Assembly (NCBI RefSeq): GCF_044324785.1
Contig: NZ_CP172127.1
Direction: 5' to 3' (one strand)
Length of the DNA: 64,000 nt
DNA from: Escherichia coli
GTDB taxonomy: Bacteria; Pseudomonadota; Gammaproteobacteria; Enterobacterales; Enterobacteriaceae
Numbering within the stretch: the stretch's first letter is position 1; each line of letters starts with the position of its first letter. The translations under genes were made by a program, and so were the position numbers. Of the stretch, positions 9,480 through 10,217 are shown in pieces. A model generated the notes under the pieces. The model made no database searches. It saw only the letters and a program-made list of their open reading frames with translations, and had not been told where the DNA came from.

Positions 9480-10217
9480 ATGTCACAGTCTACATCCGTG
9501 CTTCGTCGTAATGGATTTACTTTTAAACAGTTTTTTGTTGCTCACGATCGCTGTGCGATGAAAGTGGGAACGGATGGCATTTTGCTGGGCGCATGGGCAC
9601 CGGTGGCTAGGGTAAAACGTTGCCTTGATATCGGCGCGGGTAGCGGGTTGCTGGCATTAATGCTGGCGCAGCGAACCGATGACAGCGTGATGATTGATGC
9701 CGTTGAACTGGAAAGTGAAGCTGCCGCGCAGGCGCAGGAAAATATCAACCAGTCCCCGTGGGCAAAGCGGATTAACGTCCATACGGCGGATATTCAGCAG
9801 TGGATCGCACAGCAGACAGTGCGCTTCGATTTAATCATCAGTAACCCACCTTACTATCAGCCGGGAGTAGAGTGCGCGACACCTCAACGGGAACAGGCTC
9901 GCTATACCACTACGCTTGATCACCAATCGTTGCTGGCCTGTGCGGCGGAGTGCATTACCGAAGAGGGATTTTTCTGCGTGGTGTTGCCAGAGCAGATTGG
10001 TAATGGTTTTACTGAACTGGCATTAAGTATGGGCTGGCATTTACGTTTGCGGACGGATGTGGCGGAAAACGAAGCGCGACTGCCGCATCGGGTGCTGCTG
10101 GCATTCTCCCCGCAGGCAGGAGAATGCTTTAGCGATCGCTTAGTCATTCGTGGGCCAGACCAGAACTATTCCGAAGCGTATACAGCGCTGACCCAGGCTT
10201 TTTATCTGTTTATGTAA
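9480..10217 (+). CDS. trmN6: tRNA1(Val) adenine37-N6-methyltransferase (YfiC/TrmN6), 245 aa
   Basis: ORF 9360..10217; internal ATG at 9480; SAM-binding DIGAGSG and NPPY motifs. Confidence 0.9.

Follow-up and report, generated by a model that had tools for sequence, protein, structure and literature searches.

The 16-bp tail-to-tail overlap of trmN and nadB in Escherichia coli and its likely passive maintenance

Two convergent genes and their shared ends

The window, as we call the whole 64-kb stretch of Escherichia coli DNA that was analyzed, carries trmN (also named yfiC, trmN6, and trmM) on the forward strand at 9480-10217 and nadB on the reverse strand at 10202-11824. TrmN is a protein of 245 amino acids, the tRNA1(Val) m6A37 methyltransferase, identified by the NCBIfam equivalog model NF047853 with a score of 424 bits against a cut-off of 350 and with residues 2-245 covered. 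NadB is the L-aspartate oxidase, with 540 amino acids and a score of 1049 bits against the equivalog model NF006567, for which the cut-off is 629. The E. coli L-aspartate oxidase has been crystallized (PDB ID: 1CHU), and it aligns near-identically with the window's NadB over residues 1-540; the crystallized chain, also 540 residues long, ends with the same C-terminal residues. A RefSeq record that is 100% identical over a 2.6-kb stretch places both genes at these same window coordinates. That stretch runs from 9300 to 11900; E. coli strain N3 matches it at 100% identity, and the other 5424 matching genomes, from the 5426 searched, do so at 90-99%. Gene coordinates compared with strain N3 (NZ_CP031609.1) drift by +3 at 24.8 kb and then by -17 bases at 55.5 kb, and the window probably comes from a different, though close, strain of E. 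coli.

The program-made list of open reading frames gives 9360..10217 (+) and 10202..11824 (-). Position 9360 is the start of a longer GTG frame and is a mechanical maximum only, the annotated trmN start being at 9480. The overlap is independent of which start codon is chosen because both of its limits are stop codons. On the forward strand, 10200-10217 reads TTT TAT CTG TTT ATG TAA, so that TrmN ends with F-Y-L-F-M and a stop at 10215-10217. The reverse complement of 10202-10219 reads CAT TAC ATA AAC AGA TAA, so that NadB ends with H-Y-I-N-R and a stop at 10202-10204. The two coding regions thus share 16 bp tail to tail, 10202-10217 on both strands, and in this arrangement the third positions of trmN codons and of nadB codons fall on the same base pairs. 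The original prediction, made from the letters alone, had placed a 16-bp convergent overlap of trmN6 and nadB at 10202-10217 and had added that this leaves no room for a terminator between the genes. The sequence, the frame list, and the RefSeq annotation all agree with the first statement, and the second follows suit, as the intergenic space is none.

The overlap is real, but it is ordinary and was previously known. The annotated reference genome of E. coli K-12 MG1655 has both genes, nadB (b2574, 2710420-2712042) and yfiC (b2575, 2712027-2712764), likewise oriented and likewise overlapping by 16 bp (2712027-2712042), with no difference of substance from the window. Both are real genes, they share 3' nucleotides, and the sharing recurs in orthologous loci, which is what defines a convergent overlapping protein-coding pair. 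Convergent overlap as a type is not rare in E. coli, where Huvet and Stumpf (2014) counted 663 overlapping adjacent pairs in a reference genome, 75 of them convergent (PMC4161906). Within the window, 3 of the 10 annotated convergent pairs of coding sequences overlap. The other two are tadA/mltF, by 4 bp at 24889-24892, and hcaT/csiE, by 9 bp at 55529-55537, and the trmN/nadB overlap is longer than either.

Conservation of the overlap, the constrained partner, and origin

A query of 71 bp centered on the junction finds one match each in 5416 of 5426 complete E. coli genomes, with both genes annotated beneath the match in all of the records listed. A wider scan by TrmN alignment, using one genome per species, collected 80 loci from many genera of Enterobacteriaceae, including Escherichia, Salmonella, Citrobacter, Kluyvera, Klebsiella, Raoultella, Enterobacter, Leclercia, Lelliottia, Kosakonia, Cedecea, Buttiauxella, Mangrovibacter, and Shimwellia, together with one Mixta. 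The junctions measured number 81: the window, the locus of strain N3, and 79 scan loci (one lacking nadB was left out). Of these, 77 have an overlap of exactly 16 bp, three of 8 bp, and one of 12 bp. In the four exceptional loci, the NadB tail is frame-shifted or rearranged, by a frameshift, a short tandem duplication, or a different tail, and nadB still closes within the last five codons of trmN.

Two Escherichia loci are worth describing on their own. In Escherichia sp. ESNIH1 (locus L029, about 4225-4255), about 13 nt of the overlap sequence are duplicated in tandem just 3' of the trmN stop; NadB there ends with ...NYIKRTT*, the overlap is 8 bp, and the old tail is retained as an internal copy. 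In Escherichia sp. MOD1-EC7003 (locus L006, 4240-4750), trmN is intact, while nadB is found as three short matches with a large internal loss and is probably a pseudogene in the genome representing that species.

Which of the two proteins is held constant can be asked from the 76 species having the 16-bp form. The TrmN C-terminus is FYLFM in 75 of the 76 and FYIFM in the remaining one. Across the same species, 10 of the 16 overlap positions are invariant, and the six that vary (10202, 10205, 10206, 10208, 10211, and 10216/10217) are all either synonymous for trmN or in the trmN stop codon. The same trmN-synonymous changes alter the last four residues of NadB, which fit the pattern [Y/H][I/M][N/K][R/K] and occur in dozens of combinations. 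Since variation is confined to sites that are synonymous for trmN while the NadB tail changes, TrmN is the constrained partner and the NadB end is the follower. Structure prediction is of little help at these ends: the AlphaFold models, built on shallow alignments of close relatives, were poor, with a mean pLDDT of 56.8 for NadB and 71.6 for TrmN and with both C-termini under 50.

The fixed length comes from how the TrmN end is written. The nadB stop is formed on the reverse strand from three trmN bases, the third of the Phe codon and the first and second of the Tyr codon, whose reverse complement is TAA or TAG. Direct reading and the species comparison both put the Phe-Tyr codons, TTY TAY, at 10200-10205 on the forward strand, with the junction YTA giving TAR antisense, which is the nadB stop at 10202-10204. 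Because TTY-TAY always gives TAR antisense, the nadB stop is not losable as long as TrmN keeps Phe-Tyr. The second antisense frame is closed by TTY-ATG (as TTA or TCA), and the third is closed only if the Leu codon is CTA or TTA. This pattern of closure in the three frames fits the exceptional loci, where an off-frame nadB still ends inside trmN. Among the 150 best TrmN representatives at 50% identity, whose identity to the query goes down to about 40%, F-Y-L is the commonest ending, and the motif is therefore a property of the protein family and not of the locus. Judged from these sequence comparisons, constraint on the TrmN C-terminus is enough to explain the conservation of the overlap in full, and a regulatory role is not needed. 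Strict conservation of the overlap is equally expected from a selected regulatory arrangement.

Outgroups give an indication of how the overlap came about. Three relatives with the gene order srmB-trmN-nadB-rpoE keep a spacer between trmN and nadB, of 70 bp in Yersinia (locus L085), 119 bp in locus L090, and 109 bp in Biostraticola (locus L091). In Hafnia, a transporter gene lies between the two genes, and in Rosenbergiella (Erwiniaceae) and one further relative nadB is absent from the trmN locus. NadB ends with ...PTILxP in all four of the outgroups having nadB (Yersinia, Hafnia, Biostraticola, and L090). The NadB of Enterobacteriaceae and Mixta has ...GPSILSP aligned to that end and then 4-7 extra residues. 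In the window, tail comparison identifies this add-on as G N H Y I N R (10205-10225, reverse strand), absent from the outgroup proteins and having its last four codons in trmN. Codon insertions and deletions among genera occur upstream of the last four NadB residues.

These comparisons suggest a sequence of events. A spacer of 70-120 bp would have been lost, together with the original nadB stop, in an ancestor of the Enterobacteriaceae. Translation of nadB would then have continued into the final codons of trmN as far as the first stop met antisense. The last four residues of NadB are a passenger tail, changing with the trmN-synonymous sites. The order of spacer and stop loss is probably as described, drawn as it is from a few outgroup loci and not from a dated phylogeny. 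With the overlap shared by one Mixta (Erwiniaceae) and nadB missing at the Rosenbergiella locus, the origin could be older than that ancestor or multiple. Movement of stop codons is the standard route to convergent overlaps, which are more conserved than neighboring spacers (PMC4161906). Generic prokaryotic tail-to-tail pairs likewise have a short 3'-3' overlap that is attributed to stop-codon movement (Huvet and Stumpf 2014, PMC4161906), and the difference here is that one particular dipeptide, conserved in the partner protein, accounts for the stop closing nadB. Taken as a whole, the best explanation, and one we think likely to be right, is that trmN/nadB is a genuine and old tail-to-tail overlap of two housekeeping genes that is passively maintained.

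The three outgroup spacers (L085 3757-3826, L091 3856-3964, and L090 3799-3917) contain strong G+C-rich hairpins that are absent from the Enterobacteriaceae, and these may be bidirectional terminators or repeat elements.

Transcription and termination across the junction

The original prediction also had each transcript reading into the partner gene. The structural part of this stands, in that the full-length mRNAs must share at least 16 nt of complementarity, and the transcript overlap of the pair is on record (PMC12288877). ExcludonFinder (2025) has nadB-yfiC in its core list of 165 convergent pairs with transcripts overlapping in half or more of 58 MG1655 RNA-seq data sets, a status that for this pair comes from RNA-seq coverage alone (PMC12288877). 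The same list names the window's other convergent pairs with overlapping coding sequences, mltF-tadA and csiE-hcaT (PMC12288877). Most of the listed pairs overlap in their UTRs, and nadB-yfiC differs in that the coding regions themselves overlap. Complementary 3' ends are produced by 276 of 370 convergent operons in E. coli, about 75%, with a mean overlap of 286 nt (Conway et al., PMC4161252). At that frequency, overlap of the nadB and trmN transcripts is the norm.

No spacer is available for a bidirectional intrinsic terminator, and no G+C-rich hairpin flanked by an A-tract and a T-tract was found between the two stops or just past them. A consensus terminator scan of 9000-12400 gave five terminator-like sites, none convincing, against 4.0 ± 2.1 in shuffled sequences. 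In the 600 nt beyond each stop, a thermodynamic scan turned up bulged stems whose U-tracts are poor and no compact hairpin with a good one. Local folds are not more stable than those of shuffles (z = +0.42 and -0.23), and the Rfam 15 covariance models give no match at E ≤ 1 on either strand of 9000-12300.

Two sites in trmN deserve comment. The first is a perfect 9-bp inverted repeat, GCATTCTCC / GGAGAATGC, at 10101-10127, readable from either strand, formed by codons that specify A-F-S and G-E-C. Along the nadB RNA strand, it lies 75-101 nt beyond the stop codon, and a U-tract is missing from both strands. All 9 pairs survive in just two loci of Escherichia and one of Enterobacter, the other loci keeping 2-8 pairs (nadB strand). 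With the pairing decaying outside Escherichia and the U-tract missing, we reject it as a conserved terminator or stabilizer; at most, it is possibly a stabilizer of the 3' end. The second, at 10065-10113 on the reverse strand, is a weak terminator-like site with an imperfect, bulged hairpin of about -13 kcal/mol and an interrupted stem followed by UUCGUUUUC, and is unconvincing.

The question these sites raise is whether cryptic intrinsic terminators inside the genes end both transcripts soon after the stops, independently of Rho, leaving an RNA overlap of about 100-250 nt. For nadB, the candidate would be the hairpin at 10101-10127 or the one at 10113-10065 with UUCGUUUUC, and for trmN it would be 10417-10449 with CUUCGUUGU. 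The terminator-like matches at these places and the perfect 9-bp stem speak for such an account, as does the fact that, as a class, 146 of the 165 convergent excludons have overlapping terminators predicted by TransTermHP (ExcludonFinder, PMC12288877). We regard it as unlikely all the same, since the number of matches is what shuffling gives, the stems are short or bulged with poor U-tracts, the one perfect stem has no U-tract and decays outside Escherichia, and the local folds are no stabler than chance. The Term-seq tables of Adams et al. (2021) likewise hold no 3' ends at the locus.

The preferred account, passive maintenance, would have transcription end inside the partner gene by the action of Rho on untranslated, C-rich extensions and by trimming of the 3' end. 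Candidate stretches, both C-rich and G-poor, lie at 10270-10373 on the forward strand (C 0.33-0.35, G 0.15-0.18), in what would be the untranslated extension of the trmN RNA, and at 9942-10071 on the reverse strand (C 0.29-0.35, G 0.13-0.15), in that of the nadB RNA. Windows with C over G would be compatible with Rho loading in a generic way, as antisense strands of coding regions are commonly C-rich. The Term-seq and bicyclomycin tables of Adams et al. (2021) have no 3' end or Rho site in nadB, yfiC, or trmN, nor at any coordinate of the form 27117xx-27122xx, and they do have entries for the neighboring rpoE, rseA, srmB, and yfiE. The missing entries could be explained by low expression, and they count neither for nor against Rho.

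For K-12, SMRT-Cappable-seq describes single-gene transcripts from start sites at 2710391 (nadB) and 2712801 (yfiC), and its supplements give start sites and no 3' ends at trmN/nadB. Mapped to the window, the start sites are about 9443 (+) for trmN and about 9480 and 9364 (-) for srmB. In the divergent srmB-trmN region (about 9364-9480), the distal srmB transcript would cover about 38 nt of the trmN 5' UTR. With srmB overlapping at one end and nadB at the other, trmN is overlapped by its neighbors at both ends.

Antisense interference and what the overlap means

The original prediction had gone on to suggest antisense interference between a tRNA modification gene and a gene of NAD synthesis. 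Such interference is possible; on the sequences at hand, it would be neither distinctive of this pair nor needed to explain why the overlap is conserved. Under passive maintenance, any mutual antisense effect would probably be weak and incidental. The convergent E. coli pair ilvA/ilvY (Sameshima et al. 1989, cited in PMC4161252) is reportedly a classical example of overlapping transcription and termination. We know of no functional link between the TrmN and NadB enzymes. A literature search for pair-specific antisense or Rho data on nadB/trmN returned nothing relevant.

A stronger proposal sees in the overlap a regulatory device kept by selection, a convergent excludon that couples NAD synthesis to the m6A37 modification of tRNA(Val). 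De-repression of nadB at low NAD would lower trmN, and the reverse would also apply, by collision of RNA polymerases and by RNase III cleavage of the duplex. The arrangement is conserved over many genera, no terminator can sit between the genes, and the pair is in the ExcludonFinder core list, whose members as a class show lower co-expression in single cells and higher synteny (PMC12288877). Set against this, the published support for reciprocity is at the level of the class, and dsRNA validation with p19 failed for convergent pairs, ExcludonFinder describing it as not feasible for them (PMC12288877). The constraint on the TrmN protein accounts for the conservation, as only trmN-synonymous sites vary, and close relatives with the same gene order retain 70-119 bp of spacer with hairpins. 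Transcript overlap in about 75% of convergent operons (PMC4161252) also means that overlap of this kind is no signature of selection. We consider the regulatory device improbable. Its most specific form, in which trmN/nadB would be an obligatory convergent excludon and nadB de-repression at NAD limitation would reduce TrmN and hence tRNA1(Val) m6A37, seems to us more improbable still. If the excludon proposal were true, it would amount to an unrecognized link between cofactor supply and decoding.

Least credible, to the point that we reject it, is an annotation artefact in which one frame ends earlier or is not expressed as annotated, an idea considered because gene overlaps often stem from the choice of start codon, for which we found no support, and against which stand two unambiguous stop codons as the limits of the overlap, no in-frame stop upstream of 10217 in trmN or downstream of 10204 in nadB, end-to-end matches of both proteins to curated equivalog models, and the same length and C-terminus in PDB ID: 1CHU.

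Little is at stake in the overlap as such, which is in the K-12 reference annotation, in a pair already cataloged among convergent genes with overlapping transcripts. What the present analysis adds is the reason why the overlap is frozen at 16 bp and the asymmetry of constraint on TrmN versus NadB. If passive maintenance is right, trmN/nadB would serve as a clean textbook case of a convergent overlap that arises and persists without regulatory selection, and as a warning against inferring function from the conservation of an overlap.

A further overlap lies close by in the window and is of a different kind. The gene rseD (12080-12235), for the rpoE leader peptide, shares 4 bp, 12232-12235, with the start of rpoE (12232), a co-directional coupling of the usual ATGA type.
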